In this document: positions 1 to 35,872 of the stretch, in pieces
Layout of the letters: the number at the start of each line of letters is the position of its first letter
How positions within the stretch are numbered: position 1 is the first letter of the stretch
Program-made: the position numbers and the translations under genes
Notes under the pieces: model-generated
What the model was told of the DNA's origin: nothing
Databases searched by the model: none
Seen by the model: the letters and a program-made list of their open reading frames with translations, nothing else
Assembly (NCBI GenBank): GCA_973895155.1
Contig: OZ316897.1
Location: 22,171,455-22,235,454 of the forward strand
DNA length: 64,000 bases
From: Marsupella aquatica
Taxonomy: Eukaryota > Plantae > Marchantiophyta
Direction: 5' to 3'

Positions 1-5
1 GGACA

Positions 6-6849: not shown

Positions 6850-7344
6850 ATTGACATTAGAGTTAGTCATTTATGGCAGAAGTCCATAATGACAATATGT
6901 TGTTGTAAACACTGATACATTCTCATTTTCAGATTGACCCTAAATTTTGTCATTTAACACCGTTGGTTAAAATGACGATAATACATTTTTTGTCATTTAT
7001 CACCGTTGTCCAAAATGATCCAAATAGATTTTTAGTCATTTCAGTCATTGTCAAGAGTGACTATAATGTTGCTAAACACTGATTTATCATTTTTGTTATT
7101 AATTGTGTCATTTAAGACATGTGTCTAAATTGACCATTTAGGGAAATTGGGTCATTTTGGTCGCATCAGTCATTATAGACATTATACAAAATGACGAAAA
7201 AATTAACATTTTGTCATTTCAGTCTATTGGTCATTGTGGACAGTCATTCCCCTGTCATTCTTTTTGTGTCATTAAAACTTTTGGTCATTTATTCATCTCT
7301 GTCATTGGGTGATTGGTCATAAAGGGCCCTGTTTTCTTCTAGTG
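6850..7344. mobile_element. Right end of a CACTA/EnSpm DNA transposon (TIR + subterminal repeats)
   Basis: Ends in ...GGGCCCTGTTTTCTTCTAGTG, i.e. CACTAGAAGAAAACAG on the reverse strand; many GTCATT/AATGAC subterminal motifs in both orientations; cuts off the MTase frame (the ORF tail TRRKQGPL is TIR-derived). Confidence 0.85.
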
Positions 7345-10300
7345 TTCACGACTTCAATAGTGAAAGTCAAAGTCCCCAATGTTCCCAATTGGCCTCCAAT
7401 CGGTGGTTGAATCTCTAGACCTTTGCCGCCTTGCCCTTCAATCTGTGCTTCATCATATAAATTCCAGTTTGACTTTAGAGTCATAATCCGATGTCTCACA
7501 AAATCAATCTGCGCAGCACTTTTATCAACCGCACAACCCTGGCGAGAATTGAGAAGAGCCGCAGCTAACATGGATCCGGTTCCGCAACAAAGATCCATAA
7601 CCCAGTCATTTTTCTCCGAGAAATGAGTAACAAACCAAGCACCCAAACCAACAGGCTTTTGGTACGGGTTCACAACATAGCCCAACGGATCAACAGACTT
7701 TTTGGTTACACATGGAACCTTAATGATATTGATGTGAGACTCATCCGGTTGGAAATTGTACATGTTCATGTTTCGGATGCCTTCCTCGCTGTAGAATCCC
7801 ATCGACCAGTTTTTGAAACCCCACGCCAATCGAGCACCGGCGGGACGCTCATGAATGTTGACCTTCTCCCAAATTCCAGACTCAACCCCACAGTTGCACA
7901 CAATCTCGAGCGCAAACATGACCATATTTGTTCCTGTAATGAATGGATCACAACAAACCTCCACTGCTTAGCAGCTGTCATGTTCGAAAAACTTCTCACT
8001 ATATCTACAACGTCCTTTTCCGTGAAGGACACTTCATCAAACTCCGAACCAGGCGCATTAAAACCATACGGAATGTCGGCAACGGCAAGAGTGTAAGGTT
8101 TTCCCTCCACAAAAGAATCCAAAATTCAAACATCCCCAACATGGAGATAGTAAGAGAAAGAATCTCCGTTAGCATTTTTCCATATTTGCTCCACGACTTC
8201 TCGTGCATCCTCGCCTAGCGTCTGGAGCCGGTTGTACCGATCAATTGCAGCAAGCACAAAATTCTTGAACACATACGGGATGTCAGCGGAGGGAACAATA
8301 ACCTCCCCCGCCGAATTATATTGCACAGGCGGAAGAACTTTATTTTTCCGCTTCGACCCAATCTTCAGCTGTAACAAAGGTCGCACAGAATTCCAATCAG
8401 AATGAAATTGCTTAACGAATATGAAAGCCGTTAAAAATCTTGGGAATGAAACGAGTTATGCAAAAATGTACTGATGGAATGGCAAGGCCGATAAAAATCT
8501 CGCGATGATTTTTGAATGGAACGAGGAATGCAAAAATCTACTAATGGAATGGCAAGGCCGATAAAAATCTCGGGGAGAGACAGGTGCTTACCGCTTCGCT
8601 CAAGTTCTCTGCCCATGTTCCTAGGACGGAAACATCCATCTCATTTGGAAACATTTCTCTGCACGTTGCCCAGTCGGGCTGCCCAGATATTTGCAAGAAT
8701 AATTTCTTCACCTTGGAAAGTTTTTTCAGCTTTTCCCCTTCCTTGTGCATTTGATCCAAGGTGATCACTTTCCCAATGACCCTATTCAAGAGCTGCTTAA
8801 CATGCTCCTTAGTTGACTGTCCTTGAAGACCTCAAAAAGTATTTAAATTGAGGTCACCTGCAAGTTTATTCATTTTAATCTCTTTCAGTGTTAAAGGTTT
8901 AACCTTTCCCTTTGCATTTGTTGTTGCCAAGATCTTTTTGGGTTGTCCCAAGACAGTCCCCTTCTCCCACATCTGGAAAACTTTCTCATGAAGATCCCAA
9001 ATTTCACCCGTTCAAAAAGCAATCTGGAATGTTGGGACATGTTTGGCCATGTTGTCACAAACACCGGGAGTGTATTGCAACATACATTCCTAACAACAAG
9101 CTTTGCGAACATCCTTGTTTGATCCTACATCCATTTCAACAAAGATATTGTGGCACGCACGAACTCTATCGATAAGAGTCATGTTCTTCCTATACTCCTG
9201 GTCATAATTGTGCTGGAAGCCCAACTTCTGGACCTCCGACTTGGTAAGTCTTGCATATACCCAAGCTTCCAGCTCACCATAAATCTGCTTCCCATACATT
9301 TTATACAACTCGGCCTTTGCCCGAGCACCATGATTTCCTCCAGTAATTCTATACTTCCATACTCTGGACTTTAGAATGTCCCAATCCTTGATTGTGGGAC
9401 AATCCTCCGGATCCACACACAGCACAAACGGTGCGCTAAAGTTAGTGGGGTTTTTCCTTAGAAGAATCTTGATATTCTCCACATGCAATTTTTCCACTGG
9501 TCTGATCAAAGTTGACTTCTCTCCAGCTTCATCAAAAATTAAATTGTTGACATGCAATAGGACAGTTGTCCTTTGAACCCTTCGCTGCATCAGCAGACTG
9601 AGCTCCGCTTTGATGGCATCAGTCTCATACATCGAAAGAGCAGTCTCCTCCTCTTCATCAATCTAGAAAATGCCGTTTGAAATTAGATTACGAAAGAAAC
9701 AGCAAGATTTTTATCGGAATCCTCTTTCGTCAATAGAAAATCAAAGTTTGGTAGCACTTACCGATGGAACCTCGGCTTGTATATCTGAACGAGGCAAACG
9801 CTCATCAAGCACCGGAGGCTCCATATTGATCGGGGCTTCCACTCCTTCCGGGGCTGTGGATAAACTCCAGCCTGTTCTCTTTCTCTTAACGCAGACTCCA
9901 GAACCAAATGGCCCCGATCCCTCAGATCCTCTACTCTCGCTTACATTTATGTAAGGCGCTTCCGAAATGCCTAAACCTGCACCGGCTGCACGACCTCGAC
10001 GATTGCCGCTGCCCCTTCTCCCGCCCTTGGAGGGACCAGCAACATCTTCCTTGATGTTCCCTCTCCCTCTCCCTTTCCCCCTCCCCCTTCCCTTCCTCGA
10101 ACCACTTTTGGGCTCGTCCAAAGCCGTACCTCCAGCGCTTTTTGCCGATGAAGCTCCACTCCCGTTAGAACCAGGCCTCTTAATAACTATTTTCCGGATG
10201 GGTCTGAATTCTTCACCTGTGAGCCTCTTGTACTCTGCGTTCACCCTTGGTAGCATGATGAGATCACAATCTTGGACAAACTGGCACACCCAAGCTGGGC

Positions 10301-10360
10301 CCATAAGATTCATTACTTTTGCTGACCTAACTTCCGCGACAAGCGCGTCTTCAGGGTAAC
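7345..10360 (-). pseudogene. Gene A, 3' portion: ParB/Srx-like domain + beta-class N6A/N4C DNA methyltransferase (element Y)
   Basis: ParB-like YRITGGNHGARA; MTase motif IV-like LAVADIPYG, then NPYQKP and motif I-like VMDLCCGTGS (PF01555-type order); phase-0 GT-AG introns at 9663-9761 and 8369-8591 join the ORF pieces in frame; several in-frame TAG/TGA stops and a frameshift near 7930. Confidence 0.85.
8427..8572. repeat. Three copies (60-70 bp spacing) of GCCGATAAAAATCTCG, a variant of the Y palindrome, inside an intron of gene A
   Basis: Copies at ~8427, 8487 and 8557; the last two lie in a ~70-bp tandem duplication. Confidence 0.7.
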
Positions 10361-10385
10361 ATCACCCTATTCATTAAAACTGGAA
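10361..10385 (+). repeat. Left TIR of element X
   Basis: 23/25 match to the reverse complement of 28384-28408. Confidence 0.88.
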
Positions 10386-11073
10386 TTTCTCTAGTCCAAA
10401 AGTTGACGTTTAAATCTATTATTTTACACCCCAAAATTCTATAACTTTGTCCCCAAAATCATACATTTTCGTGGCCAAATGTACACTTTTTAAAGTCTAA
10501 ATTTACAATTGTAATGCTCAAATTATTAAATAACTAAGTTATTAATTATAAATATTATTAATTAAAATATAAACATATACAAATATAGAATAAGACAATA
10601 TAAGTTTGACAATACAATAAATTCAAATGATAACATTAAAAATGACACACTCTAACCAAGGGTCATGAACACGGAACTCCAGGAAAACAAGTGATGTATT
10701 ATAAAATTATAAAACCTATTTTTACAGGGTCGAGATCACATTGACCCCTATATAGGGTCCAGATGGTTCTGACCGGTTGTTGAATGCATATCTGTAAAAA
10801 TCTATATGATGACCATCTCGACCCAAATGGAGGGTTCACATAATTTTGACCCGTTGTTGAATGTATATCTTTAACTTACTATTCTTTCTGTACAGGGTTA
10901 AGACCCGAATAGACTAGCCTTTTTATGAGTATATATCTATAAGTAAAACCCTATTTCTTCAGTAGAGGGTCAAGAACATTTAGACCCAAATGGATGTTAC
11001 GGTAAGCTTCACGCTTTCCTACAAACATATACCCCTAACTAATAATCAGTGTTTGGTGTAGGGTCGAGATCAT

Positions 11074-12333
11074 CTAGACCCAAATCTCATGATCCTCCTC
11101 CCCGCAGAATTCATTTGAGCAAGTAAATCTAGACCCTGACGGGTCATATTTCATATCGCGATTGCAAAAATCCAGAGGCTTTCTATTCCAAAACTTAGTC
11201 GTGAGGTCTCTAGTCCTCAGAACTTCCGAAACAAATGCCAGATGATTGTCTCTATAGGGTCTTGTATACTGATCCCCAATTAATGTCCTTATAAGGTCCT
11301 CGATCGCCTCCTCCGTCAATTCCTCAATTGGTGGCAATTGTTGCACTTCATTCTTGATATCCCAGGAAATTTTGTCCGCTGTAACATCCAAGACTGTATG
11401 GATAACAGTGGGAACCCATACCATACTACCCCACCTCTCCGACAACAGCGCATAAATGGCAGCCTGTTGATCACTATCCGATAAAACATTGATCATAGAC
11501 CACTTTGGTTGATTGATAAATAGGTAGTGTTGAAGATTGAAGGCATGATACAATTTCCTCAGCAGAGGCCACAGTATTTCGGGAAAGAAAGTATCATCCG
11601 TGGAGTGATGCAAAAATGAAGAAGGGAACAACCCACAATTCTCTGGATTTGCAAACGCCTTCATTGGAGAGTCATCAAGGAGGAGTGTATTAGTCTCATC
11701 GTATAATAAACCATAACGTTTCCAAACAACCCTCAAATCCTTCAAAAGAATATTTGCATTTCCGTCGGTGACGTCAGGCCTCTGGATTCCAGTGTCAAAT
11801 GTATCTTCTTGCGTCAGAATAAACTTGAATTGCTCTTGCTCTTCTTGAGTGAAGATCAAATGAATCATTTCATTTGCCCTGGGCTTTCTCGCACAAGTCC
11901 AGATGGCAACATCAAATATAGCAAAAGTTGCGATTAAGAACTCGTGAAGATGGGGACGCTCAACATACATAAAGTTAAATCCTCCACGTCTCCCCCAATG
12001 AACACCCTTGACACTTGTGGCACTTCGGCGCGGAGTTCTAACAGAATCCCAACACATTTTGTTGAGGTCAAGAATCAATAGCTTCCGTCTGATTGGACCG
12101 TGAAGTGGAGGCAAGGGTCCTGCAAACAAGAGACACCTATATTAGAATTGTGTGAGACAGAATAAAGGTAGGCTAGAGATGATCTCAAGCATGAACAGTA
12201 AATGAACAACAGTGCGCGACAAACCTGCAATTGGCAGAAGGGCAGATGTCAAAGAATGTGGAAAGCTTCGGAGACTATTGTCGACGCAATCCACAACTGG
12301 TAATGGCCCGCCTATCTCTGTGAAGGTAGACAT
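11074..12333 (-). CDS. FCP1/SCP (NIF)-like HAD phosphatase-domain protein; exons 12333-12225 and 12119-11074
   Basis: RKLLILDLN, ERPHLHEFL, FDVAIWT, LLKDLRVVW and NTLLLDDSPMKAFANPEN match the NIF fold signature; a phase-1 GT-AG intron (12120-12224) joins the 63-aa and 351-aa ORFs; motif I reads DLN instead of DxD. Confidence 0.8.
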
Positions 12334-12339
12334 AATAAT

Positions 12340-15300
12340 TTAGATGGCTGAATTTGAGGACTGAAGGTAGCTTGGGTTTCAACGTCACTTGCTGAAAGAC
12401 CCAAATTCATCTAGAAGGTTATCTCCTAATTGGTTTTGGATGTCCAAATTGATCCCTCCAGGAAGCGTTTCAACAAGAGCTGGCTCAGACTAGACTGGCA
12501 CTAATTTGAACTTATTTTTCCTATAATCCCTGGAACGCATAATCTTCTCAGCCTGATCTACACTGACTTGTTCGCCTTTTGATGGACCATGAATCCACAC
12601 ATAATGAGTAGCATTAGCTTTGAGAGATTTGTAACCAGTTCTACCAATTTCAACACCAGGTTTCCTAACAAAAGGGAGAATTACGGGGCTTCCAGTAGAA
12701 GAATCTATGAAAACAAGCTTATCCTCTTAAGCGCAAAACATTTGGTCCAAGGGAGAGGACGATGCACCTGCCTCGTCCTGAGGGGGAGTTGTGGCAGGGG
12801 AGCGACAAGCTTTCTTGGTTGAAAGGATCTCATCGAGTCGAGGTGGGCTAGGAATTGGGTGGCTGGCAGCGTCCTGCAAGGTGGTTTCCCAACCAACATC
12901 CAAGTTCGAAGACTGTTGCTCACGTTGTGCATCCTCTGCATGAAATGCGTCCCTCGAAGAAGGTACACCAGGAAGCTCGAGATCATCTCGACCATCATTT
13001 ACCTCATTAAATTTGGGCAATATTTCACCCTCCTCTTCCATGTAGCTTGGGATTTTGGGGCCCTCTATTTTGCGATGCTCCAAATTCTCCGCAAAAACTT
13101 CCTCAGAAACACTCGCCTCAACTGGAGCTGGAATCGAGGCCACTTCTTCCAAAACAGTAAGGGGACCGGCTTCAATGGCCTCAGATGGCAACGACTCTGG
13201 GGGTGGAATATATAAAACATGGCGGTTGTCATGGAGGCTCGCGCATAAGCTTTGATGAATTCCATCTCTTGAGCTGTGTCAGAATAAACAAAACAATCCC
13301 GACCAACAATGACGCAAGCTTTGAGGGTCTGCCCTCCGGAGAAGAAGTCAAGCACTGTGTGACCAGTGCTGGAGAAATAATCAACAAGATGCTTTGTCAT
13401 TCGTATAGGTTTAGCTTTGGGGTTTACAAAGCCCCCTCTCCAACCGACCATCTCATAAGACGGGGCCATCTTCTCCAATACTTCGACATCAACTCCAACT
13501 TCATCCTGCTTCTCTTTCCCTCTTTGTTGATCCTTGCTTTTCCCAGCGGAAGACCTCATCGGTAAGACGGTGAAGTCTTTGTCGTACTTAGCACTGTAAT
13601 TCCAGAACGCATAAAAATCATCGAAGAAAATTTGGGACCAGTCAGGCTCTTCATCACAACAAACTCCCCCAAAAATGATAGTGTCCCGTGCTCCTATGAG
13701 AAAGTCACCTTCCTCCTTGGGTACATCTTCACGGTAGTAACTACCGTACTCGAGCTTAGTGTGGACTTTCTTCTCATGACGGAACTTCTCGAAGGCACTC
13801 TGAATCTGGCCTATTAAAGGGCCCTGACGGACAAAAATAATTGCCAAAAACTCGGTTGAGTTAGACATCTCCACACAATATTCCAACAAGACAAAAATCT
13901 CAGCATCTGTCCACTGATGTTGTCGAATACGACCAAAGTCGACAAGGGCAAGTGCGCACGTATTATGAAAGGGTCCAACTGATTCCGGCTTCATCGTCCT
14001 CATAAGATTGTCGCTTAAAAAACTGCGATAAGGAGTATCCACCATAGCAGGAGTCCCACCAAACGTCTTGCAGTATATCTGCTCAAGCTTCACAATGAGA
14101 CTTTGCAGAAATGGTTCTTTGGCCCTATTTCTCTTTAGGAGATTGGACAGCCAAACCTCCCCAGCGAGCTGTCTCAGTTTTGGCAATTCACCGTGATCTA
14201 AAAATGCTGGCAAAAATTGAGTTAGCTCAAACCAAGTAAGTGAATCGGAAAAATGTTCGGGATACTTTAAAACGTAGTACTCCACAATTTTTTCCCTCAG
14301 CTTTGTCATGACTTTAAACGTGTGGGCCATGTCACTCATTGATTGAACATCAGATTTGTTCGCTGGGTCTTTCTTCAATAGAACCTTCTGATGATGAACG
14401 GCGGTGAACACCTTTAGAATGTCCTCACTACTGAGGTCCCCTTCAAAGCATCTAAACAATGCCGGTGTAATCATTTTTGTTGTCCGGCTTTTCCCATTCG
14501 TTTTTTAACCTAACTCACCAAGTCCATCAGGAAGAAGCCCCTTGACCCAATCGATGCACATTAGTCTCCAAGACTGGAACAGTTTCTCTTCCGAAAACAA
14601 CAACCAAAAAATATTCCTCAGGTCGGATTTTCTAATCGTTATTTTGGCCAAAGCCATGAAATCCTGATCCAAAGATAACAACAAAAGTCTGAGGCTCGAG
14701 ATGGTCTAGAGGTAGAATGAAGAAACTATGTTGAAATTTATTGAAAAAGACTTGAATACAAAAAATTGACCTCGAGGCTCGAGACAATCTCGAGCTAGAA
14801 GTGGATTTGAGTTCAAATATACCTGGAACTTTTGATGATCCATTAGTCTATTGGACCCAATCACGGGTCTCTTCATACGGCCACACTCGTCAAACTGTTG
14901 AGGGCATGGACCATAGTATCAAGAAAATAGGACTCATACTCCATTGTCTTGTTAACTGCATTTGCCCTTTATGAGTGTTGAGCAAGTATTGTTCTTGGAG
15001 TTTTGTCCGAAAGAATTCATGACTTTCGAAGCTGAAGACTCTTGGCGACCTCCTTCAACTTTGCATTGCTCTTAGACCAACCAATGATCCAAACTGCTGC
15101 CTTGGCCAAGTGTTGTCCACTAATTGCAAGGAATTGCACCTTCTTATTCTTCACACCCCACTCGAACTCCTTTCGATCCTCAGGAGTATTATCATAATGG
15201 AGCAACTGCGAACTCTCTCTTGAATACGGAATTAAATCCGCCACAGTTGGTACCATTCCAGGGTTTCTAACCATGGATTTTGCGATCTCCATGGCATGGT

Positions 15301-17787
15301 CCTTATTGAACATCCTATATACCAAAACTGCAGAAGGTGAATCTATACTAGTGACAGGAATGTCAAAAGTTTCATTCATGCCAAATGTGTAATACTCCTC
15401 AATCTCCTTAAGAACTTTGGCTCCTTCTTTAACGCTCTTTTCACCCGGAGCATCTCCTGGAGTGCCATCATCATCGGTATGTGCAATCACACTCGAAGAA
15501 GATGTCGGAATGAGATCTACCTTTACAGGCGCAAACTTTTTCTTAGGCGGAGCCTTCTTCGAAGCGCTTTCAGGTTTCTCAACCCTTTTCCTCTTTTGCA
15601 CCACCTTTGCCTCCTTCTTGTCCGAGCTTGACATCTTATCTCCTGAAGCTCCTGATTTCCCTTTACCTGTTTGTCTCCGATGACACAACACCCACTTCTT
15701 ACACCCTTCCTCGTCAAATTCACCAGCTCCAAAAACAAAATCAGGGGAAATGGATTGAAACTCTCCCACCTTGGAATCTGACATTATTCTCAAAACCTTC
15801 CAAGTGAAAGGAGTCGTGAATTCATTGTCATGATCAAAACCGTATTTCCGGCAATACAAGAATCCAAAAATTATATCTGCCCCAGTCATTTTGGACTCTT
15901 CCAACAGATTACTGGCAGTAAATCCATCGGGGAAGAATCCCATTGGTATCACGCTCAGTTGTTTCCTAGGAGCACATTCAATATTAAGATCGCACGAGTA
16001 GTTCTTGGAGTGAAGCCTAATGAGAGCCCATTTCCCACTCTCATGGTTCTCCACCGTCAAGACCATGTCCTTACCATTACTTGTGACAATGGAAACAACA
16101 GGCCCAAGTAAGCTGCAAACTAGAGGTTCGGTAGATGGAGACCTCGTCTTCAAACAAATAACTGACCCCTCCATCTCCTCAATTTCAGCTAGCTCAATGG
16201 CCCAACAAAATCCTATATCAGTTTGTCCAAGGCACAAAACCTCAAGGGCATGTTCATCTTCAACAATCAAATTGGGCAATCCCAATTTTGCACCTGGAAA
16301 AAATGAAAAATAGACCAATTGTCAGAATCACAGAAACGAGAAATCCCGTAAGAGGCTCGAGACGATCTCGAGCTTCCCTCACCCATTAACATAGTTGAAC
16401 TCAAATAAGTACAAAACCGTTGTTTCATGGCCAGATGTATTTGGGGGGAGGAATTGATTCTAAAATATCATAAACCCACCTACCAATCACCTTTTCGAAC
16501 CCCAATCATCAATGGAAACAAGTTGGAGGGTATTTCACAATCTATAGATGGCAAGCATGGAATACAATGGAAGCTCGAGATGATCTCGACCCTAAATTCA
16601 TGAACAATACTTTAGAAATAGAATACAGGAAGAGTCAATCGTGGCTAAACAGTCAACATTATCTAAATCTTTGCATTGTCATATTTTGTCATAGGAAAAC
16701 ATTGATTCTCAATTATGAGAATCTCCATCGAATACGAACATCATACTCAAAAGTTGACCAAGTTTACGTCTAACACCGACTTCAAAAACTCTCTAACTCG
16801 GGATGATTTCCATGATCAGAATGAGTTGGAGAGTACAGAAGTCGTTGACAGAAGCAAGCTTGGTCAACTTTTGATAGGATGTTGGTTTTCGACAGACGTG
16901 GTCTTCCATACACAAAAAATCTGACAAGGCAAAAATTTAGTACATTGTTGATGAATTGGATATTTTAATACTTGGGTCAAGATGATCTCGACCCAAGTCT
17001 CTAAAAGTTAGAATACAGAGACTCACAATTGGCATTGGTTCACCGTTAACTAAATCTTTGCATTATCATGTTTCTTCACTGAAGACATTGATTCGCAAAT
17101 ATGAGAATGTCGATCGAATACGAACAACATACTCAAAAGTTGTCCAAGTTTACCTCTAGCAAAGGCTTCAAAAACTCTCTAACTCGGGATGATTTCCATG
17201 ATCAGAACAAGTTGGAGAGTACAGAAGTCGTTTTCAGAAGCAAGCTTGGCCGACTTTTGATATGATGTTGGTTTCCAAAGGAGATTGTTTTCCATCGGAA
17301 ATAACAAAACATCCGTCAAATACGAACAACATATTCAATAGGAATCTAAATCTGCCTTTTCCATAATCCCTTTTGGATATGCTGTTAGTATTTGACAGAT
17401 ATAGCATGACAGATACATCAACATGAAAATGACAGAAACCTCTTAACTTTGTGGATATTAGGCTCGAGACGATCTCGAGCCTAATCTCAGTTACAAACGA
17501 TAAACTTGTTCACTTTGAAGCCACCTCTTGAAGCAAAGTAATGCAAAAAATATCAATCGGCTCGAGATGATCTCGACCCTCAAGTGGATCAAAAACCAAG
17601 TATGATTTGAAGCTTGAGATGATCTCGAGCCAAACCTCCATCTAACAATGAGAAAAGATAATATATTACGTTTGATTGTGCGGTGGATGTTCTGCGATGA
17701 ATCTAGAAGGGTCTGAAGCTCCATCGCTACAGTTGATGCGTCGTACTCGGCGAAGTTATCCTTGGAGAAATCTACAACGGTCGACAT
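12340..17787 (-). pseudogene. Gene C: second ParB-like + MTase-like gene with degenerate catalytic motif (element X)
   Basis: ParB-like VQFLAISGQHLAKA in ORF 15017-16318; MTase C-terminal half NPKAKP...FSSTGHTVLDFFSGG in ORF 13065-14474; LALVDFGR at the apparent DPPY position; phase-0 intron 14664-14822; probable first exon from ATG 17787; several stops and frameshifts; both ends approximate. Confidence 0.72.
16570..17290. repeat. ~390-bp tandem duplication, each unit starting at an X palindrome
   Basis: Shared blocks such as TTCAAAAACTCTCTAACTCGGGATGATTTCCATGATCAGAA at ~16781 and ~17167. Confidence 0.8.
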
Positions 17788-17999
17788 GGCTACTGGATAG
17801 TGGATACTAGATCTGGGTGATATAAGAAAAATATTATCTCGAGGCTCACAGGAAAATCTTGATCCAAACGGCTATAAAATATCTTGAGGCTCAAAGGGGA
17901 TCTTGACCCTAAACAAGTCTCGAGGAAAAAATGACGATCTAGAGGCAAAAGCGACGAAATATCTAGAGGCAATAAGCAAGAGGCGAGTGAGGCGCGGAG

Positions 18000-18290
18000 G
18001 GGAGGTAGGCAGGGAGGCGAATGTGCAAATGAGGGTGGCGACGTTGTGAATGTGGACTATAAGCCGCTCGGTCGGCCCTGAGTCAGGCTAGGGTGCCCGG
18101 CGACGGATGCCTGGCCACGTGTAGGATGCCACGCGCCCATGCGTGGGAGTGAATCTTGAGTTGAGTCATGATGACGGTGCTGTCACACGTACTGTCATTA
18201 TTGCGGTCCGTACTTCACCCTGCCGCTAGTTCATCCCTGCCATTGGTTTGACAGAGCCATCTGGTCAGGCAGGATTTTATATATTGCTCG
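18000..18290. promoter_or_regulatory. Probable divergent promoter between gene C (-) and the transposase-like gene (+)
   Basis: GC-rich island with CACGTG (18116) and TATA-like TTTATATA (~18276), followed by a pyrimidine-rich 5' UTR-like tract; the flanking genes point away from it. Confidence 0.4.
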
Positions 18291-18942
18291 TTTTTCCTCC
18301 CCACCGGGTCATTCTTCAGATATCATTTCATTGCTCGCTTCCTGCTCCCCTCATTCTCTCTCTTATCCCTCTTCCTGCCCCTGCCTCTCGCTCCCTGTTC
18401 TCTGGCTCTAGATTTTTTCTCGAATCCCTTTCTCTCTCAGTTGTTTATTTGGTTTTGGAGACATTCTCATTTGAAGCCATGAAGTTGGTCTAAAATAATT
18501 GAACCCATACCTTTTAGAATACCAAACCATTTATGCTTAAAACATTGCCACTCAGAATCCATTTGTGATCCTTTTCTCTTTTTTTTGAAGCTATTTCTCA
18601 TTAGTCTTCTATAAGCCTACTTTATGTATTTCAATGTCAAACTTTTACCTCTAGATCATCTAGAGCTCCTCAATCATAACAACATATTTTTCAATTAGAG
18701 TGCCATTTGTGGCTCGAGATCGTCTCGAGCTTTAGGTATCTTCCTGGGAATTGTCTATTTTTGTTTCTAGCTCCTTTAAATCCACAAGTATTTAAGTATC
18801 TTTCCTTCTCTTGCGTGAGTTCATGCTTCTCTGAGGAGTTATTATGAGCTGTTGTTTCTATGCACTTCATAGTTCTTCTTCTAGGGTGGATTATTGATTG
18901 TTGGAAGTATAGAATTCCCTCTTCATGTGGATTTTATATTCT

Positions 18943-19176
18943 ACCTCGAGATTGTCTCGAGCTGAAGACTTTGTTAATCTATATCTCATGGTTTTTGTGG
19001 TCCATTCTTTACCTCGAGATCGTCTCGAGCTGAAGACTTTGTTAATCTATATCTCGTGGTTTTTGTGGTCCATTCTTTACCTCGAGATTGTCTTGAGCTG
19101 AAGACTTTGTTAGTCTATATCTCGTGGTTTTTGTGGTCCATTCTTTACCTCGAGATCGTCTCGAGCTAAAGACTTC
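18943..19176. repeat. 68-bp tandem repeat (~3.4 copies), each with a CTCGAGA-N3-TCTCGAG palindrome
   Basis: Units start at 18943, 19011, 19079 and 19147. Confidence 0.92.
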
Positions 19177-19260
19177 TTAATCTGTTACTGCTAGTTCAGT
19201 TGGTTTATTTTTGCTAGTCACTTTACCTCAAGATCATCTCGAGGTACAACAGCTTCCTAT

Positions 19261-20480
19261 TTGGAACATCTTTTCCAAATGGGGATATTCTTTCGAGGAG
19301 ACGAGGTTTCCCTCTTACTTGACGGAGTTGAAGTTGCCTCTGGAACAGTCCTTAAGGTTGACCTTGGTGACTCAGTGCGTAACGTTGATTTGGGTATTAA
19401 TCGTATAGGAGTTCTTATTGAGAGGTGCTATGATGGATCTCGAGAAATTCCATTCCCATTGCCACCGATCAGGACACTTTTTGATGTTGTAGACTCCTGC
19501 ATTATTTGGGATGCCTCTTTTGCATATTTGAGGTCACAGTCAACTCCAGTGATGACACAAGTGGATGCTACATGTTCTACAAATGATACATTTCCCAATT
19601 GCTTACCTGAAAAATCTGCGGTGGGAAGTTTGGGAGACTCAATTATGGATGGCAATGAAGTGGAGCTCTCGATTGGAAATCAGATTGTGTGTCAAGGATT
19701 TGTATTCAAGACGAAACCCGATGAGACTTGTCACAATGAAAGACTTGGCCCTGATAGGATTAGTGTGAAGATATGTGAAGTTGTTCAAGGAATGGAGAGG
19801 TTACCCTTTCCGCACGCTGGAGCCGATACCGTTCAGGAAGGATTGGACAGTTTTGTAATCTGGAATTTAAGGAATGTTCATCGGAGGAGTTCTTCCCATG
19901 ATTTACTAGATGAGCCGTCCGCACAGGATGTTTTTGGAAATTATAATTTCAAAGATTATAGTTTGCGTTCGAACTGGATGGCGGAGGAAGTGGAATTGTA
20001 TGTTGATGATAATCGGACCAAGGTCGGGCTTGGCATCATCACATTCCTTTCGAGTCTGGTGCCATTGATGATGAGGTTCTTGGGCCAAATCACGTTGGGG
20101 TTGTTGTCACACACGTGATTGACCCTCAATTTTTCCTGAATATCTCCCCCGGAGTGCCGGGTCTTGTTAGGTGGGCCATCCGTTCACTTGTGCTGATATC
20201 AAGGGGGATTTTTCTTCTGGATCTCATTGGAGAGGTTTCTCCCGAGCCAATTATTGATGGTCGAGATTGTCTAGAGGTAGATATGAATGGTCACACTAAG
20301 TTTTCAAAACGGCCTTATAATTTCATCAAGAGAATGAAGGGAAACCCTGATGAAAAAAGGAAGAAGCACCTGGAGTCGAGGGCAATTCTGAAAATCACAG
20401 AGGAGGAAATTGATTCCATCCAAAGAGAAGGTTGTTGTAAGTTGAAGTGTTGCCTCAACATGCCGAGAGAAGACCTTATG
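19261..20480 (+). pseudogene. 5' part of the element X transposase-like gene: three tandem Tnp1/En-Spm (TnpA C-terminal)-like domains followed by a CCxxxCC segment
   Basis: Repeated EVxL...V(A/C)xGxV...LGxxR(I)xV...LPFP...W units; frameshift near 20070; GCCKLKCCLNMPRE resembles, from memory, the N-terminal region of DUF7869-type bryophyte transposase-like proteins; fused directly to gypsy protease sequence at ~20481. Confidence 0.55.
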
Positions 20481-23400
20481 GGGAGGAGACGTAGAAGAAG
20501 GTTACCCAAAGTTGGGATTGACCCCATACAAGTCAATTGGGTCACAGAGGATTTGGGTGCCCCAGAACTCACAATAGACATCAACGGATGTGCAATACGG
20601 TTTGTACCGATGGATGGTGGTTCGGGAATCAACATCATGACTGAGGAGACAACCAATCAATTGGGGTATACGGAGTTAGAGCCACCGGCACGTGCCATGA
20701 GGCTGGCTGATGGGGCACGGGTGGTGCCGCTGGGGTGTCTCACCAAGATTCCAACAATGATTGGGGGAAAATCTTTTCCCCTCAACTATTTGGTGATGCG
20801 ACCCGTTCGGCCGTACGGTTTTCCCATCTTAATTGGCAGGCCATGGTTGTATCTGGCCAAAGTGACGAGCGATTGGGGCAAACGGCAGTTTCGGTTTGGA
20901 ACCCCCACTATTATCATTCCCTGGTCAGCGGAGTCACCTCAAGGGGAGACTACCTCTATGGAAGAGCAATATGATTCAGAGGTCACCTCAGAGGAAGATG
21001 AGGATGAAGTATACATGGTGAAGCTGATTTCTCATCTAACGGAGGAAGATGTCTTTGGTCCACAAGCTGCTACCTTTGAGGAGGGAATTATGGAAGTACC
21101 ACTTGACCAGAGTTGTGTTGTGCAGAGGAAAACCAAGGAAGAGCCACCTACACCACCCCTGGCCCAGCTTATTGATACTCAAGAGCAGGAACAAACGGAG
21201 GAGGAGGGGCAGGAAGCTCAAGCCATTCTGTTTGACAATGAACGAAGGGAGGAGTGGCTGAATGACCTCTTAGATGAAGAATTTAGAGAGGAGCTACTGT
21301 CACATTACAAAGAATCTGACGTGGAAGAAATGATGGCCCATGTGGCAAAAGACCCACCCCCAACTCGGCCAGACCAGGAGGAGAGTGATGCACCTGTGTA
21401 TGGAGGGATGAGGCTTGCACGGCTGGAGGAGACCTTTGATGAGGAGACACGCAACAAGCTGGACGTGATCAGGCCGGAGCAATACACAAAGGTGGAGGTG
21501 GGTGAAGGCAAGACACTCAACATTGGCAGCAAGTTGGATGCTACGGAGCAACACACCATTCAGAATACCAAGACGTATTTGCGTGGAGCCACCAAGATTT
21601 GAAGGGAGTGCCACCTGAGTTTGGTGAGCATAGCATTGACTTGATGTCAGGAGCCCGGCCGGTGAGGCAACGCCAATACCGTCTCAATCCCAAGTACTCA
21701 CTCATGGTGAAGGAGGAGATTGACCGTTTGTTGGATGCAGGCTTCATTTATCCTGTCATGCACAGTGAGTGGGTATCACCCATCGTGATTGTGCCCAAGA
21801 AGAAAGGGGCAGACGGTAAGGTGAAGATACGGGTGTGCTAAGATTTCCGGAAGCTGAATGACGCCACCAAGAAGGATCACTATCCACTGCTGTTTACTGA
21901 CATTGTGTTAGATATGGTGGCCGGTTGGGAGATTTACAGCTTCCTAGATGGTTACTCTGGATACAATCAAATCTGGATACGGGAGGAGGATCAACTCAAG
22001 ACGGTTTTCACCACGGAGTGGGGGATTTTTGTATTCCGTAGAATGCCTTTTGGGTTGTGCAATGCCCCTGGCATGTTTCAACGACTCATGATGAATATAT
22101 TTCATGACTTTTTACGGAGGTTCTTGGAGATCTTTATTGATGACTTTGCTGTCTACGGCAAACAAATCAAGCACCCTAAACACTTACGGTTGACTTTTCA
22201 GCGGTGCCAGGAGACTTGCTTGAAGCTACATCTTGAAAAATGTTTTTTTGGAATTGAGGAGGGGACCCTATTGGGCCACAAGGTGTCGGCTCGTGGAATT
22301 GAAGTTGATCGTGAGAAGGTAGCCGTGTGGGTAGCAGTCTCGTTTCCCAAAAACGTGAAGGAAGTGAGAGGGTTCTTGGGGTGCGTTGGCTACTACCGCC
22401 GCTTCATCAAGGACTTTGCCAAGGTAGCCATGCCACTCACATCCATGTTGAAGAAGGGAAGTGAATTTGAACCTACTCCTTCCCGTCAAGCTGCTTTTGA
22501 TGAACTAAAGAAACGTTTGCTAGAGGCTCCCGTACTCATCACGCCTAATTGGAATAAGGAGTTTCACGTTTACGTAGACGTATCCGGGTTTTGCATCGGT
22601 GCCGTCTTGAGTCAGTTGGATGAGGATGGGAGGGATCATCCCATCTACTTTGCCAGTAGGCAGTTGGCCCCGGCAGAGAAGAACTACTCACCCACCGATA
22701 GGGAGGCTCTTGGTATCATTTACGCTTGTAAGAAGTATCGTCATTATTTGTTGGGTTACAAGGTTGTGTTCCACACGGATCACAACAGTTTGAAATACAT
22801 GGTTAACAAGCCAGATCTGTCTGGGAGAATTGCACGATGGGTCCTCTTATTACAGGAGTTCAACTATGAGGTGAGGGTGAGATCCGGGAAGAGTCACAGC
22901 AATGCTGACTTCTTCTCCCGTATTGAGGGACCATCTGACTCTCAAGAGATTGATGATCGTTTTCCCGATGAAGAAGTCTTCAAGGTGACTACAGAGGCCA
23001 CTACTTGGTATGGAGAAATTCTTGAATTTCTCCGTACGGCCAGGATTCCATTACGATTGGGTCCGGAACATGCAGCAGTGTTCTTACGTAAGACGGGGCC
23101 CTACTTGCTTGTGAAGGGAGTACTTCACAAATACGGCATGGATGGACGCCTTCGTTGTTGTTTGGAGGAGGCTGAGATACGTACAGTCATGGCGGCACTA
23201 CATGAGGAAGAAGCTGGTGGCCACTTTGCACGGGAAACCACCGCTAGGAAGATACTGGATGCGGGATATTGGTGGCCCACACTTTTCCGGGATGTGCACA
23301 GGTACATCCAGAGATGTGACCCCTGCCAACGCCAAGGCAGACCAGGGCCCTCCTCCCGGCACCCATTGGTGCCCATACTTCCCCTTGCACCATTCGAGAA

Positions 23401-24340
23401 ATGGGGGGTTGATTTCATTGGTCCCTTTACTCCCATTACACGGAGGGGGAGGAAGCGCTATATCATATTGGCCACGGACTATGCCACCAAGTGGGTGGAG
23501 GCCAGGGCAACAGCAAAGGATGATGCCAACACCACTGCACGGTTCTTGTACGAGCAGATTTTCACACGGTTTGGGCCACCCTTGGAGCTTGTGAGTGACA
23601 GGGGTACTCACTTTCTCAATCATACGATTGAGCGTTTGACGGAGAACTACTTGATCTCACATAGGAAAACCACTCCGTACCATCCACGAGCCAATGGGCT
23701 CACAGAGAGAGCAAATGGGATCATGGGCAAGATCCTTAATAAGACGGTATCAGCTCACAAGACAGATTGGGATTTGAAGTTGCTGGCTGCTACGTACGCC
23801 TACAACCTGGCTCACAAGACCACCACTGGCCACAGCCCCTACTTCCTTGTGTTTGGTCAACACTCTCTTGTGCCGGTGGAATTTGAGGTTCCCACCATTC
23901 GAATCTTAACACGAGAAAGGGAAGGGGAAGAAAGTAGTGTAGCTGCACGGATCCAACAGTTGGAGCAACTTACAGAGGTACGAGAGGAGGCTTTGACGAG
24001 CACGGAGCAACAGCAAGGCAAACAGAAGTTACACTACGATTCCCATCTCCGCCGTGTGTCCATTGAGGAGGGAGATTTGGTGCTCCTCTATGACAGTCGT
24101 TTCATGCATTTCCCGGGGAAGCTACATACACGTTGGATGGGGCCCTACATTGTCGATGCAGTCTACTCCAATGGGTCAGTTCAGCTCAAGACGCTGGAAG
24201 GGCAACTACTCAACACATGGATTAATCAAGAACGCCTGAAGAAGTACTACACGGAGGAGGAGTATGGTGCTCGCGGGGGCGCTTCGCAATTAAGAGAGGA
24301 GCTATGTGACGGGGTCCCCGTCTCGAAAGGTCATCATTAG
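20481..24340 (+). pseudogene. pol: pol of gypsy copy 2 (frameshifting deletion at ~21563, TAA at 21839)
   Basis: ORFs 20115-21602 (3' part), 21599-21841 and 21905-24340 are collinear with copy 1 Pol. Confidence 0.92.
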
Positions 24341-27018
24341 GAGTTATTGGCAAGATGCATGTAAATAAATAAGCCAATATACATAATAGTTTTTCAATTT
24401 TTTTTAATTTCTTAAAAGTTAATCATCCCGGTGTGTGTTCATGTTGCTCTGGAGGGCCGGAGCTATTTGAACCCGGGAGGAACTATTTTTTTAATTGACC
24501 TTTTGCTCTCTTGGGTCTTGTCGTTGTGGGAGAAGAAAATTAGGCATCTTAAGGGGATACCACTCATTAATATTTGGAGACCCCGGCAGTTTTTCTTGGC
24601 CCCGGTATAATATGGCAGAGGAGCCCACGAGCCGTGGGGCGCGAGACGGAGGGTCGCCCTGCGAGTAGGCGGAGCCCCGAAAGGGTCTTCCAGGGCGTAA
24701 GCGAGGGGCAGCCGGGAAGGAGGAGCCCACGAGCCATGGGGCGCGAGACGGAGGGTCGCCCCGCGAGTAGGCGGAGCCCCGAAAGGGTATTCCGGGGCGC
24801 AAGCGAGGGGCAGCCGGGAAGGAGGAGCCCGCGAGCCGTGGGGCGCGAGATGGAGGGTCACCCCGCGAGTAGGCGGAGCCCCGAAAGGGTCTTCCGGGGC
24901 GTAAGCGAGGGGCAGCCGGGGAGGAGGAGCCCGCGAGCCGTGGGGCGCGAGACGGAGGGTCGCCCCGCGAGTAGGCGGAGCCCCGAAAGGGTCTGCCGGG
25001 GCGTAAGTGAGGTGGCAGCCGCATGGAAGTTGACTATGGGTAACACGGGGAGGATTGGGAATTCCCTACCCTTTGTTTTTTTTCTTTGGTTTTTTTTTGT
25101 TTCTTTGCTTCCTTCTCCGCGCGTGCAACTCCTTTCTTGGCCGAAGCACTCTGCCCTCATTTCCGAAAGCAATTTCCCCAAAGTCGGAAGCTCTCTACCA
25201 GCTCTTACACTTATTTTCGAAGCTCTTTCTCATGGTCAATTGTTGGGGCTTGTGGGCATGATTCTTCCGGGCATTAGCGGCAGCAGCACGGAGTGGCTTC
25301 TGAGGGAATTGAGGGTAATTGATTGATCGGGATACGGGGGCCGTTTCGGGCCAGGGGATTGACATTGCTACGGGTGACGGGATTTGGTGATTGAGGATTT
25401 GATTTCTGGATGCATGGATGCTGGATCAACCGGAGTTTAGTGCGGCACGCGTTCGGAGATACAAGGCTGCTTACCGTGACTACATTGAGACATTGATTGC
25501 AAGAGCTTAGAGAAGAAGCTCAGGGAGGTACATAAATCGTTACGAGAAGCTCAGGTCAACACGGGGATCCCGGGGATGCCACCCCGATCTGTCACCCCTG
25601 GGACTCCCATGGCCACCGGGCAAGTTTTACCGTTGGAGTTGTGGTCCAGTGAAGAGGCGGCCTTATGGAAGGACACCATTGGTGACGGGTACATTAAGGC
25701 GTGGCAAGCCTTGGCCAATTTGAGGAAGCAGGGGAGCACTAGCACAAGGAGTACCCCGGTGAAGAAGAAGAGGAGTGAAGTGGCACTCACTCCAGTGGAG
25801 AGTGATGAGGAGGCCCACTCACGGGGCTCAAGCCAAGGCACCGTGAGTGAAGAGGAGGAGGATTAGAGTGGTCGTACGGACGTGGTTGTACGGCCCCTTG
25901 ACTTTTCAACTTTTTTGTGAGGGGTCACTCACGGGCTTGTTGGAAAGAGCTCGCGGAGCTGATTCCAACAAGAGGCGGCGCTCCTCAAACGGAGCCAGGA
26001 TGAGCAGGTTAGGGCCCGACGAAGTTGGGTTTATGGGATACTAAAACGGCCATAACTTGGTCCTCCGATGTCCGTTTCAAGAGCGGTTGAGTGATTCATG
26101 ATCAGGGGGAGCAAGGCTACCCAGGGGTGAGCTCAGAGGTGAAATCATAGTGACACCTAGTTTTGGCAATTGTGGGGTCCCTTGCATTTTCACGGTTCAC
26201 GGAGCGACGTTGGGGCGCCGTCGAAGGCACCGTCGGCCCCATTTTTAGTTTAGGGTTTTAGGAGCATGTGTGTGCCGCATGCTTTAGGATTAGGGATTCC
26301 TCATGGACGGTTTTAGCGGCGCCGCTAGGTAGCCGCCACCTTTGTGACCCCGTGAGGGGGCTTTGGTGTGTTTGTTTCTAGTATTTAGGGGGAGAGCCCC
26401 GGAGTAGTGAGGGGGGAACTCAGCGTAGTGCTTTGATGCTTTTGAGTAGCTTTTGTGAGTAGCGCACCGATTAGGTGAAGTTCAAGCCAGAGTAGTGAGG
26501 TGGAGAACGTAGCACTTGTCCTAGGGAGGCAGGAGTTGGGCAGACGGCAGGAGGCCGGATTGCCCTTGCATGTGTTACGGGAAACACCAAGAGATATGGA
26601 TTTGGCTTGAGGTTCCAATATTTTGTGTGTCACTTGTTGTTGCTTGTGTTGTTTGTTTTCCTCCCCTAGTGCATGTGGTCGGTTTCGTTATGGAAACATT
26701 TGCCCTTGTCACTAGTGTTCAAACCTTATTGTAAACGTTTGTATGCTTGCCCATGAGAGGGGGGTGGTGACAGCACTCACCCGATGGGCATGAGTTGTAG
26801 ATGGTAGGACCAGTCCCTTGGACTTGATCAAAAACGGAGAGACCAGTCGGTAGACTTGATCAAAAAGTACACTTCTGGGAGTGGAATCAAACATACTCAT
26901 CCTTAGGTATGAAAATCCTTCAAATAGCGTCCCTCCACGACCCCGTAATACGATACCAACGGTTTAAGCGAAGAAAAGTACGATTTGCACGTATTAATCG
27001 TTGGATAGGCAAGTGATA
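24305..27018 (+). repeat. 3' LTR of gypsy copy 2 (2714 bp) with an internally deleted LTR-ORF remnant (~25434-25866)
   Basis: Homologous to 38884-43223; MPPRSVTPGTPMATGQVLPLEL... is shared with the 617-aa ORF. Confidence 0.88.
24619..25010 (+). repeat. 102-bp GC-rich tandem repeat (~3.9 copies) in the LTR
   Basis: AGGAGCCC starts at 24619, 24721, 24823 and 24925. Confidence 0.92.
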
Positions 27019-27022
27019 ATAG

Positions 27023-27688
27023 TTGGCATTGACATATGAGTTTTGGCCAAAAACCAACCACGGAACTGGTTACAAGGTGAATAGTACAGGAACCTCTGAA
27101 CCATTGGGGGAACCTAGTAGTAGTACACAGAATCCAGAAATGGTGGAGCTTCAGAATGAGTACCTTGAAGAGATGGAGGATCAAACTGCACCATTTGTTG
27201 GCACTCGACACGAGCAAGAACTTGCCCGTTGGATTCCTCTCCAGGACATTCAAGAGGGCCACTTTGTATTTCTTCGTCCAGAGGATGAATGGGAAAAGAA
27301 GAATGGCAAAGAACTTTTTTGGTTGGTGAGAGCTTTGGGTGTTGTGGACCCAAACCATGAAATCCCTTCAGGAGACTTGCAATGCAATAACAATATTTCT
27401 ACTAGTACAAGGTATGCTCCTATGTTCCAAGTGCAATGGTGGAGGCCTAAACATGGTAAACATGATGCACCGGATCATGTGCGATATTCACGTTGCTTTC
27501 AGACCACTAAGACTTGGGAGATGGATCCTGGGTTTGATAGTGTCACTGAACGTTGGCAATTTGCTAATTCTACTATGTATGGATTCAAGTCACGCTCTAG
27601 AGAAGAAAATATAATTGATAGAGGTTTGACCATTCCCAAGAATGTTTTGAAAACACTCAAAACCTACATGGAAGGGATTGTTCATTAA
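27023..27688 (+). pseudogene. 3' part of the element X transposase-like gene
   Basis: FWP...IQEGHFVFLRP...FWLVRA...FQVQWWRP resembles, from memory, the C-terminal domain of DUF7869-type bryophyte proteins; same strand as 19261-20480 and resumes right after the LTR end. Confidence 0.5.
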
Positions 27689-28383
27689 GTCAAATTAAAG
27701 TTTTCTAGTAGTCAGAGTGAGGGAGTCTAAGTATGTCAATTGGTTTGTAATGTCTTAGTTTACGTACTAGTTGGTTACTAGTGAATCTAAGTAACTTTTA
27801 TAATATTTTGGGAGACTAGTTTGAATAGGTGGGCAGGAGGTATTAATTGGACTTGGCCGGATACCTTTATATTAATTGCTTTAATTATAATTACATAATA
27901 CTATCTGACTATATTACAAGAAGTAATATTCGTGATGGGATGTGACTGCCTCTAGTAAACCTTAGTTTCAACTCGAGTTGCTTACTGTAGAATGTACTAA
28001 CAAATTAGTTAGTTACTTGAATTAATATGGATAGATACCATTCTGACAAGTTTATAAATTAATGCTTTCATTTATTACGTAGAAGGTTTAGCTAGGGTCG
28101 AGATCATATTGAAGTTAGCTTTAGTTATATTATATTACTTACTTACTAGTTAGTCAGATTGAATCAATTTTCTACTTCTTATCCAACATATTTTACATTA
28201 TTATCACCCAAATGTTTTTCTTTAGAATCCAAATTAATATTTCATTTTCCCCTATATACAATCTTGATTCCCCAAATGTACATGATCTTGTGCCCAAATA
28301 TACAACTTTCACTGCCCAAATGTACAATTCTTGTACCCAAAAGTATATATTTTGGTGCCCAAATGTCCAAAGATCAAAGAATT

Positions 28384-28408
28384 TTCCAGTTTTAATGAAT
28401 AGACTGAT
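28384..28408 (-). repeat. Right TIR of element X
   Basis: Reverse complement matches 10361-10385; followed by TSD TAAC. Confidence 0.88.
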
Positions 28409-28790
28409 TAACTCTCAAGGGATTTCTCAAGAAAGTTCTCCATGGTGACAATGACAGAGGTGAATCCCTTGCCTCCACACATTGTCAAGAAACTCAGACC
28501 CTCTTTCAACACTTTTGCCTCTCCCTGGCTAATCAAGTACTCACAGATCGCCACACCAACAACGGGGCCAAACGAGAGAGTAACCTTTGCGGATTTTTGC
28601 ATCTGGACATAAAGGATAGGAGACTCACAGTCTGCCATATCCTTGGATTGTAACCTGGTGTTGCGGAGTACCACTGTTTCTTGATGAACTTGACCTCTTC
28701 ACAAATGTCTTTGCTTGTCCAAATCGCGTTCGTGAGGCTTGTCATGAGACTTTCAGCCTCGGCAGATCCACCCTTCCCACTAGGACCCAT
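28409..28790 (-). pseudogene. Gene A, 5' portion (probable start MGPSGKGG..., frameshift near 28650)
   Basis: ORF 28408-28674 joins in frame to the sequence below 10360 once X and one TSD copy are removed; a TTTTCAG acceptor lies just upstream of ATG 28790. Confidence 0.7.
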
Positions 28791-29128
28791 GATGACAAAG
28801 TCTGAAAATTTGAATGCAAGGAGCAATAAATTTATCGCTCTGACAAACCCAAAAACCAAAAACCGGCATGCAAACATCGATACAATGAACTCAAAAAGTC
28901 CTCATTCACGTACAAGCATTAGGTCATTCCACGAGCGATACCAACTCCGATAAAATTATCGCAAACAAATATGAGCACGATATAAATTGACGGCCGAGAT
29001 TACATTATCGTACGTGTCAACATCTAAAAATGAGACCAACACCAATAAAATTATCGCAAAAGTGGTCCAAACAAAAAGTGAGCCTTCTTTAAATTGACAA
29101 CCGAGTGTACATGTGATAATGTGCCTAA

Positions 29129-34322: not shown

Positions 34323-34799
34323 GATATGCGTTATTATAAAATGGTTTGCTACCAGCCTGCAAATCTTTAAAATTAGTGATTCATCCAGCTTCCTTAGCTG
34401 GTCCATCAGGGCACCATCCCCCCATTTCGGAGGATCCACAAAGGGTACAAAAATGCGTCGCTCGAGCATGACCTGATCAGCGAATAGAAATCAGGAATAC
34501 ATTTTGGAGAACATACTCATTACAATTCTACAAGTTTCATTCAACTTTATAGTACCTTGTATAACGGGCTGTGAAGCCAATGCACTTGTTAGCTAATTGT
34601 CTGTAGAAGCGCAAAAAACTACACTCTGGACCACACAACCCGAAGTCAGGCGAGGCAGGGTCATTTATATTCAAAGTGTTTTTTTACAAGCTCTTCTCGA
34701 GCAAACCTTAGATCACCCAAAACAATTGACTACTAAATTGACCAGAGGAATGAGGAGTGCGATAAATTTATCGAATGTTCGCAGCAATGCCTCATCCAC

Positions 34800-35348: not shown

Positions 35349-35388
35349 GAAGCAGAGCTACCAAAACCACCAATAAAAGTACCTTCAA

Positions 35389-35872
35389 TCACCAGGTGTA
35401 ACCAAAGACATCCACAGTACCAACCCTGCACGACAATTTAAAGATTAGGACTCGGACCATATTGTATTCGGTGCACATGGGTAGGACTTGTTTACTTAAA
35501 TGTGTCCTTACAAAACACGCCTCAATGTGAAGGTCGCAACACTCATCGTGAAAGGTTGACCCAAGGGTCCTTGTTCCAAATCTGACAACATAAGTATGCC
35601 AATTTATGGTACTTGTTGTCAAGAGGACGACAACAATAGTTACAAGAAAACTCCAAAGAATGGAGACACGATGTTAACATCAACCTCGAACGGATTGGAA
35701 CTCCTGCACCATTCATTCCGTAGAACTCAATCCGGAGAGGATTCTGCCTATCTCCGGGATCAGTACCACCCATCCACAACGGTCCTACACCAATGGGGAG
35801 AACTTTACGTTGCACGAGTTTCTTGTACAACCGGCGTGCACGTTTGACACGATTTTGAATTAAGACAGCCAT
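35389..35872 (-). pseudogene. Unknown small gene (ORFs 35543-35872 and 35389-35622, possibly frameshifted)
   Basis: ATG-start ORF co-oriented with the other Y genes; no recognised domain. Confidence 0.3.

Follow-up and report, generated by a model that had tools for sequence, protein, structure and literature searches.

A 64,000-nt stretch of the Marsupella aquatica genome (contig OZ316897.1, positions 22,171,455 to 22,235,454; hereafter the window, numbered from its first nucleotide) carries on its minus strand a broken three-exon gene, gene 1, that joins a ParB-like half to a beta-class amino-methyltransferase. On balance we favor the view that gene 1 is a dead accessory gene of a giant Sola-like transposon (element 1), and that its intact form would bind palindromes and methylate its own element, probably at N6-adenine. 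This view is held because the two domains are fused, both folds are recognizable, the methyltransferase motifs follow the beta order, a transposase is linked to the gene in 4 of 6 related loci, the introns are conserved, purifying selection is apparent and palindromes lie in the non-coding DNA.

For comparison, six close loci (L001–L006, 57–66% identity) were taken from a metagenome scan. A sequence-only reading of the window had placed the gene at 7345..10360 and reported GGNH, DIPY, NPYQKP and DLCCGTGS motifs together with two clean spliceosomal introns. All four motifs were located on the minus strand where it had placed them (GGNH at 9341, DIPY at 8077, NPYQKP at 7670 and DLCCG at 7595; an extra DIPY at 8284 lies in the linker), and both introns, GT-AG and in phase 0, link the three exons without loss of frame. 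The 3′ part of exon 1 (9762..10360) encodes the end of an N-terminal domain and a low-complexity linker. It is followed by intron 1 (9663..9761, 99 nt), with a near-match to the element 1 palindrome at 9703, and by exon 2 (8592..9662), which encodes the ParB/sulfiredoxin-fold domain and a helical region and contains three premature stops. Intron 2 (8369..8591, 223 nt) holds exact CGAK-N6-MTCG sites at 8489 and 8559, and exon 3 (7317..8368), with one stop and one frameshift, encodes the methyltransferase. The position of intron 2 is common to all five related loci that span it, as is the acceptor of intron 1 in 3 of 3.

The gene extends further than that reading had it and does not start at 10360. 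Its first ~125 codons, the 5′ part of exon 1 (28413..28790, minus strand), are on the far side of an 18-kb insertion, and the true start is the ATG at 28790. This segment encodes the N-terminal domain and was matched in tblastn by the N-termini of L001 and L002 (E about 1e-12), which align with 28763–28417 and then resume at 10358. With the insertion removed in silico, an open frame of 284 codons results, and the alignment is unbroken across the empty site. The insertion, element 2 (10361..28408; 18,048 bp), has 25-bp terminal inverted repeats (TIRs) identical at 23 of 25 positions and is flanked by a TAAC duplication (10357–10360 and 28409–28412); among 217 inverted 25-mer pairs, it was the only one with identical 4-nt flanks. 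A 2-bp AT duplication was rejected, as by eye it restores neither the frame nor the homologous length, whereas TAAC does. A 4-bp target-site duplication is given for Sola in PMC10741241, and the duplication and 25-bp TIRs of element 2 fit that superfamily.

That this copy is dead, as had been stated, is borne out by four stops (9092, 9014, 8834 and 8128) and at least two frameshifts (near 7930 and near 28665). The three TGA stops stand where every aligned relative has Arg and the TAG where one relative, P0003, has Gln; this is what would be expected if C had decayed to T in CG and CHG contexts. Gene 1 is broken by the entry of element 2 into exon 1 and by the premature stops, and the window copy has no likely function. 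Neither the nested element, its second methyltransferase gene, the palindromes nor the algal precedent for such cargo featured in the sequence-only reading, the claims of which otherwise fared as given with each result.

The beta-class assignment of the methyltransferase half is upheld by motif order: when the minus strand is read, motif IV (DIPY, 8077) comes ahead of motif I (DLCCGTG, 7595). The expected match to PF01555 was obtained in part: the window piece fell under the 26.7-bit cut-off (24.3 bits, E 3.5e-5), whereas intact relatives were above it (33.6–36.8 bits), and 23 of 43 family members matched at E ≤ 0.01 (best 7.6e-18). A profile of these 43 sequences gave M1.HpyAVI, MboIIA, RsrI, CcrM and BceJIV as top matches (E 2e-16 to 2e-12), with N4CMT (E 7e-6) and PvuII (E 0.019) further down; a structure model of the full-length relative P0017 reproduced this ranking, N6-adenine enzymes first, with smaller gaps. 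Motif IV was called 44 times, near-duplicates included; its first residue is D in 42 calls and N in the other 2, and S in none. By these comparisons, the methyltransferase half is nearest to N6-adenine enzymes. The earlier caution that DIPY hints at N6-adenine without settling the base was sound, since the tally favors N6-adenine and D alone is not decisive. The special link then drawn to the bdelloid and Marchantia enzymes making N4-methylcytosine (4mC) is not supported, with no S-starting motif IV in 44 calls and N6-adenine enzymes outranking both N4CMT and PvuII.

A 4mC product, placed for instance at the palindromes' CG and blocking host 5-methylcytosine (5mC) in the manner of Marchantia DN4MT1 or bdelloid N4CMT, would accord with the presence of CG in both palindromes described below, with the structural matches to N4CMT and N4-cytosine-annotated viral enzymes, and with the CpG observed/expected ratio of gene 1, which is 1.27 in the introns (only 322 nt) and 0.66 in the exons. 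We nevertheless regard it as improbable. PMC8885841 gives SPPY as the motif common to most bacterial N4-cytosine enzymes and DPPY as that of N6-adenine enzymes; the SPPY of DN4MT1/N4CMT-type enzymes occurred in none of the family hits, and 42 of the 44 calls begin with D.

Selection on the motif was judged from the related copies. Between L004 and L005, dN is 0.065 and dS 0.88; in the remaining 14 exon 3 pairs, pS is saturated and pN is 0.14–0.33. D[IV]PY is invariant, and copies whose synonymous sites are saturated still preserve D, P, Y, NPYQKP and GxG, so that the catalytic D[IV]PY motif is under purifying selection. L001, L004 and L005 each have a defect, and L002 has no stop in three exons. 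These data also bear on the idea that the protein binds DNA and is catalytically inactive, acting as a shield or an RNA-directed enzyme. Motif IV is D-[IVFAL]-P-Y, not DPPY, in most plant members, and the F of motif I is replaced by C, which would speak for this idea; preservation of the catalytic residues despite saturated synonymous sites, and the existence of phage beta enzymes with DLPY, make this reading rather improbable.

The ParB-like half was recognized by fold. A structure model of 9090–9662 (predicted local distance difference test score 88.7) matched ParB, Noc, PadC and KorB in Foldseek with E values from 2.7e-4 upward (2.7e-4 to 8e-4 for ParB, Noc and PadC), and VIA aligned it with PadC over 100 residues (Z 9.5, root-mean-square deviation 3.3). 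The ParB claim of the earlier reading therefore stands as a predicted ParB/sulfiredoxin fold and not as a Pfam ParB match; no ParB family was found for the window piece through Pfam, NCBIfam, PHROGs or a PDB profile search. HTH_ParB was matched weakly in a single relative, L002 (E 8.6e-4, under the cut-off). The Atlas cluster label ParB_N (0.93, with the family on 32% of members) is a lead. The His of the GGNH-type motif is present in 34 of 35 family sequences, the window version being GGNH-x-x-x-A. Palindromes of 14–16 bp accompany the family; the reference parS site of ParB is 16 bp.

Exon 2 and the methyltransferase gene of element 2 (gene 2) found no match as queries in word-index searches, but a full HMMER search of 1.84 billion representatives succeeded, with 250 hits; the counts given next are from the 150 listed. 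Among these, mostly exon-sized fragments, the ParB part was found in 63, the methyltransferase part in 77 and both in order in 13 (blastp), so that fusion of the two domains in one gene is confirmed by single open reading frames (ORFs) with the halves in the right order. A count of 28 fused ORFs was dropped in favor of this stricter blastp figure, as the hidden Markov model (HMM) behind it was contaminated by misaligned rows (Haliotis proteins). Hosts named for the 29 proteins looked up include Chara braunii, Riccia sorocarpa, Adiantum nelumboides, Ginkgo biloba and the amoeba Clastostelium, and also Haliotis, with the ParB half only. The abalone proteins (P0064 and P0158–P0160, from four Haliotis species) are conserved, have the GGNH half without the methyltransferase and are possibly a domesticated derivative.

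In a quick IQ-TREE analysis of 59 rows (9 near-duplicate or partial rows removed first; prokaryotic sample small; MpDN4MT1 and N4CMT not among the rows), gene 1 and metagenomic copies cluster with support 100 within a eukaryote-associated radiation, set apart with support 91 from 17 of the 18 rows of prokaryotes and phages. The remaining row, L045, sits on a long branch, as does gene 2. A recent prokaryote-to-plant transfer was not seen in the tree, and no donor can be named from it. Viral contigs yielded no close relative, and none of the ParB half turned up among phages; matches from prokaryotic genomes and phages were only partial, at 23–46% identity, and some viral proteins align structurally over both halves (ranks 1, 3 and 10). 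Because fold and motif order are of prokaryotic type, a prokaryotic origin is supported, but it is old, as is the family, which is spread over eukaryotic transposons.

The transposon context comes from the relatives. A DUF7869 transposase (E 8.9e-50) lies tail-to-tail with the methylase gene in four of the six loci (L002, L003, L004 and L006); L001 and L005 stop within about 360 nt of the gene end, too early to show it. Riccia has R1sor_022315 (transposase) and R1sor_022317 (ParB-like half) two locus tags apart, and the transposase clusters are rich in Streptophyta. DUF7869, of GHTHxxIDQ type, is presumably Sola1; the literature search found no paper naming it. The earlier notion of a prokaryote-derived methyltransferase domesticated by a plant transposon can be kept as regards prokaryotic type and transposon carriage; domestication as a host gene is not supported, because the gene is transposon cargo. 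A host gene that was domesticated and decayed later would explain the conserved introns and the strong purifying selection. That is very improbable, given that 4 of 6 loci show transposase linkage, that one metagenome assembly contains several divergent copies, that multiple copies are broken and that the surroundings are dense in repeats.

A different palindrome marks the introns and spacers of each of the two elements: CGAK-N6-MTCG in element 1 and TCGAG-N5-CTCGA in element 2. The first occurs 14 times in the window against 1.4 expected: two sites in intron 2, one upstream of the gene start, six at 34.8–36.5 kb, three at 43–46 kb, and one each within the insertion and at 60 kb. The region upstream of the start (28820..29060) has one exact copy and three with one mismatch; 34760..36570 includes a 56-bp tandem array (36004–36449) and is provisionally assigned to element 1; and the three sites at 43374..46466 could be part of element 1 or of a different element. 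L001–L006 together have 51 exact sites, of which 48 lie outside coding sequence (6.1 kb), in introns, upstream stretches and the spacer toward the transposase, and the other 3 within it (15.8 kb), with 0.03–0.33 sites per locus after shuffling. Sub-families also have palindromes of their own, GCGAGAC-NN-GTCTCGC in five loci and CCGAT-N6-ATCGG in L002. The element 2 palindrome, TCGAGAYNRTCTCGA, is present in 17 copies (11064..20275, at most one mismatch, 0.03 expected), all within the insertion. By eye, copies of AACCATGGT precede a TATA-like box at 36713–36760 and at 1–40 of L001, in both cases upstream of palindrome arrays. Right after the gene 1 stop, a cluster of GTCATT/AATGAC repeats (6860–7317), unlike both palindromes, is perhaps another small element.

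Subterminal motifs serve as transposase binding sites in CACTA elements, and the palindromes might likewise be bound by the transposase, with the methyltransferase an independent cargo without site targeting. They do co-occur with the transposase, including in the spacer between the two genes, and the Pfam helix-turn-helix match is weak and limited to one relative. They also occupy the two introns and the region upstream of the methyltransferase gene, however, and are not limited to the ends, and in elements whose transposase is unrelated, palindrome arrays adjoin ParB genes. This explanation we judge unlikely. The pairing of palindromes with ParB has a precedent, since Plavaka elements of Bostrychia, with a different transposase, have palindrome arrays beside ParB genes.

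In the favored reading, the ParB-helical half of the intact protein would bind the family palindrome dispersed in its own element, and the beta domain would then methylate the element DNA, probably at N6-adenine; the mark would serve to label self DNA, keeping the element transcribed or resisting host 5mC silencing. Palindrome binding, catalytic activity, target base and purpose are inferred for the intact protein.

Several points weigh against this reading. Searches of the window with tblastn, HMM and hhalign yielded no element 1 transposase, nor were element 1 ends (TIRs and a 4-bp duplication) found, so Sola membership rests on relatives at 48–67% identity; long terminal repeat (LTR) sequence occupies the expected place of the transposase. 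The ParB CTPase motif is GxxRxxA according to PMC11229316. It is absent here, the family having G-G-[NTSG]-H-[SGCT]-x-x-A with no Arg at the motif position; with GGNH-x-x-x-A in its place, we speak of a ParB/sulfiredoxin fold and make no claim to a CTP clamp. Some relatives lack the catalytic motif or, as in Haliotis, have the ParB half alone. Asp in motif IV leaves the target base unfixed, and N4-cytosine-annotated viral enzymes also score high in the structure ranking. The palindromes could be transposase sites; moreover, their patterns were chosen after inspection, and several window copies are tandem arrays, not independent occurrences.

Upstream of gene 1, broken coding stretches at 34330–35900 and 29129–29716 (both minus strand; one weakly F-box-like, E 0.069) are possibly further element 1 cargo, split off by LTR sequence at about 29.8–34.2 kb.

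Element 2 has a methyltransferase gene of its own. Gene 2 (12226..17787, minus strand) is divergent, spliced and broken, with ORFs at 16321–15017 and 14504–13065 joined in a putative splice model. Its motifs are ISGQH, VDTPY, NPKAKP and DFFSGG; it matched PF01555 at E 1.6e-4 and the family profile with 95% probability in hhalign, and a ParB-like reading of its N-terminal part was not confirmed, at an hhalign probability of only 14%. Next to it, 11074..12141 (minus strand) encodes an NIF/FCP1-like HAD phosphatase domain (PF03031 E 1.7e-17; TIGR02245 E 8e-12), in which DLN replaces DxD at the catalytic position. This domain is possibly the last exon of gene 2, to which a candidate palindrome-bearing GT-AG intron (about 12224–12120) may link it. 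No transposase core was recognized in the insertion by Pfam, hhalign or a 73-sequence HMM. A truncated ORF near the right end (26960..27688, plus strand) is by eye a candidate transposase tail, with no Pfam match, 0.2% in hhalign against the transposase of the loci and no hit with the 73-sequence HMM. Further ORFs (19195..20480, plus strand), cut by LTR sequence, may be a transposase-associated gene, without a match to Pfam or the transposase HMM; the one at 19195–20260 encodes three short domains that resemble one another and then a CCxxxCC motif. LTR-retrotransposon sequence lies within element 2 at about 20.5–26.9 kb.

Taking the two elements together, we raise as a tentative idea that giant transposons of streptophytes have a private, ParB–parS-like system of self-recognition, each reading and spreading from its own palindrome and laying down an N6-methyladenine (6mA) or 4mC anti-silencing mark, with an FCP1-like fusion in element 2. 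The N6-spaced palindrome would be read in element 1 and the N5-spaced one in element 2, and the fused phosphatase domain could act on RNA polymerase II. If true, land plants would have a sequence-addressed amino-methylation system encoded by transposons, one that would also supply plant 6mA.

Other features of the window were noted. Related Ty3-type LTR retrotransposon pieces, 64–89% identical (1–6800, 20500–26900, 29800–34200 and 37600–42500), interrupt both elements; the CpG observed/expected ratio is 0.21 in the leftmost. At 44272–45809, inverted arms of about 130 nt with 24-bp tandem units, 1.2 kb apart, look like a small non-autonomous element. An intact, intronless short-chain dehydrogenase ORF of high GC (54678–55925, minus strand; PRK06196-like, E 2.8e-87) had no exact match in the protein collection; it resembles ascomycete short-chain dehydrogenases, and fungal gene transfer or contamination is possible. 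Degenerate 17/35/71-bp tandem repeats lie at 58084–58880.

The family offers apparently intact enzymes with a selected catalytic motif, a candidate binding site distinct from one sub-family to the next, and the nesting in one locus of two elements with different palindrome spacer lengths; together these make a published hypothesis testable. It extends the design to streptophytes (Chara, a liverwort, a fern and Ginkgo) and points to transposons as a possible source of amino-methyl marks in plant DNA. A 2016 review counts few N6-adenine methyltransferases in land plants (PMC4738411). We found no land-plant report of ParB–methyltransferase transposon cargo; Marchantia, Sola and horizontal-acquisition literature outside our coverage may mention plant members.

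Among known enzymes, M1.HpyAVI, M.MboIIA, M.RsrI, CcrM, M.BceJIV and phage ParB–methyltransferase fusions resemble gene 1 in fold and in having motif IV before motif I; the gene 1 family differs from the beta-class N6-adenine enzymes in being spliced, in its extra N-terminal domain and in sequence (about 15–30% identity). Marchantia MpDN4MT1 (bioRxiv 10.1101/2021.02.12.428880) and bdelloid N4CMT (PMC8885841) are likewise prokaryote-type beta amino-methyltransferases in eukaryotes but are host genes with a (T)SPPY motif that make 4mC, and the accessible text of the Marchantia preprint does not mention ParB. The chlorophyte-type Dam of Iyer et al. (PMC4738411) also fuses a ParB-related domain (a helix-turn-helix of the ParB type) to an N6-adenine methyltransferase in eukaryotes; it belongs to Group 2 (M.EcoKI/M.TaqI type), is not among the permuted enzymes and occurs in chlorophytes and chytrids.

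The nearest parallels are algal transposons. Bostrychia Plavaka elements, with the accessory genes PAG2 and PAG3 (bioRxiv 10.1101/2025.02.11.637652), also carry a PF01555 methylase and ParB-like cargo with inverted-repeat arrays beside the ParB gene, but as separate genes (methylase plus SET, ParB plus 2-oxoglutarate oxygenase) and with an EnSpm-type transposase; in the window family the domains are fused and palindromes lie in introns. Sola1-1_Ec32 of Ectocarpus encodes, on the strand opposite its transposase, a 1104-aa protein with ParB and an N4C/N6A methyltransferase, for which binding and modification of its own element have been published as a proposal (PMC12477816). By that description it is like the gene 1 family, a fused ParB–methyltransferase antisense to the transposase of a giant element, and it shares a 4-bp duplication with element 2; it differs in its brown-algal host and in its ends (AACCG-CGGTT termini and a 282-bp TIR, against ATCA termini and 25-bp TIRs in element 2), and palindromes are not mentioned in the text available. 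This type of cargo is thus already published for algae, in Ectocarpus and Bostrychia, and the Marsupella gene is a further member.

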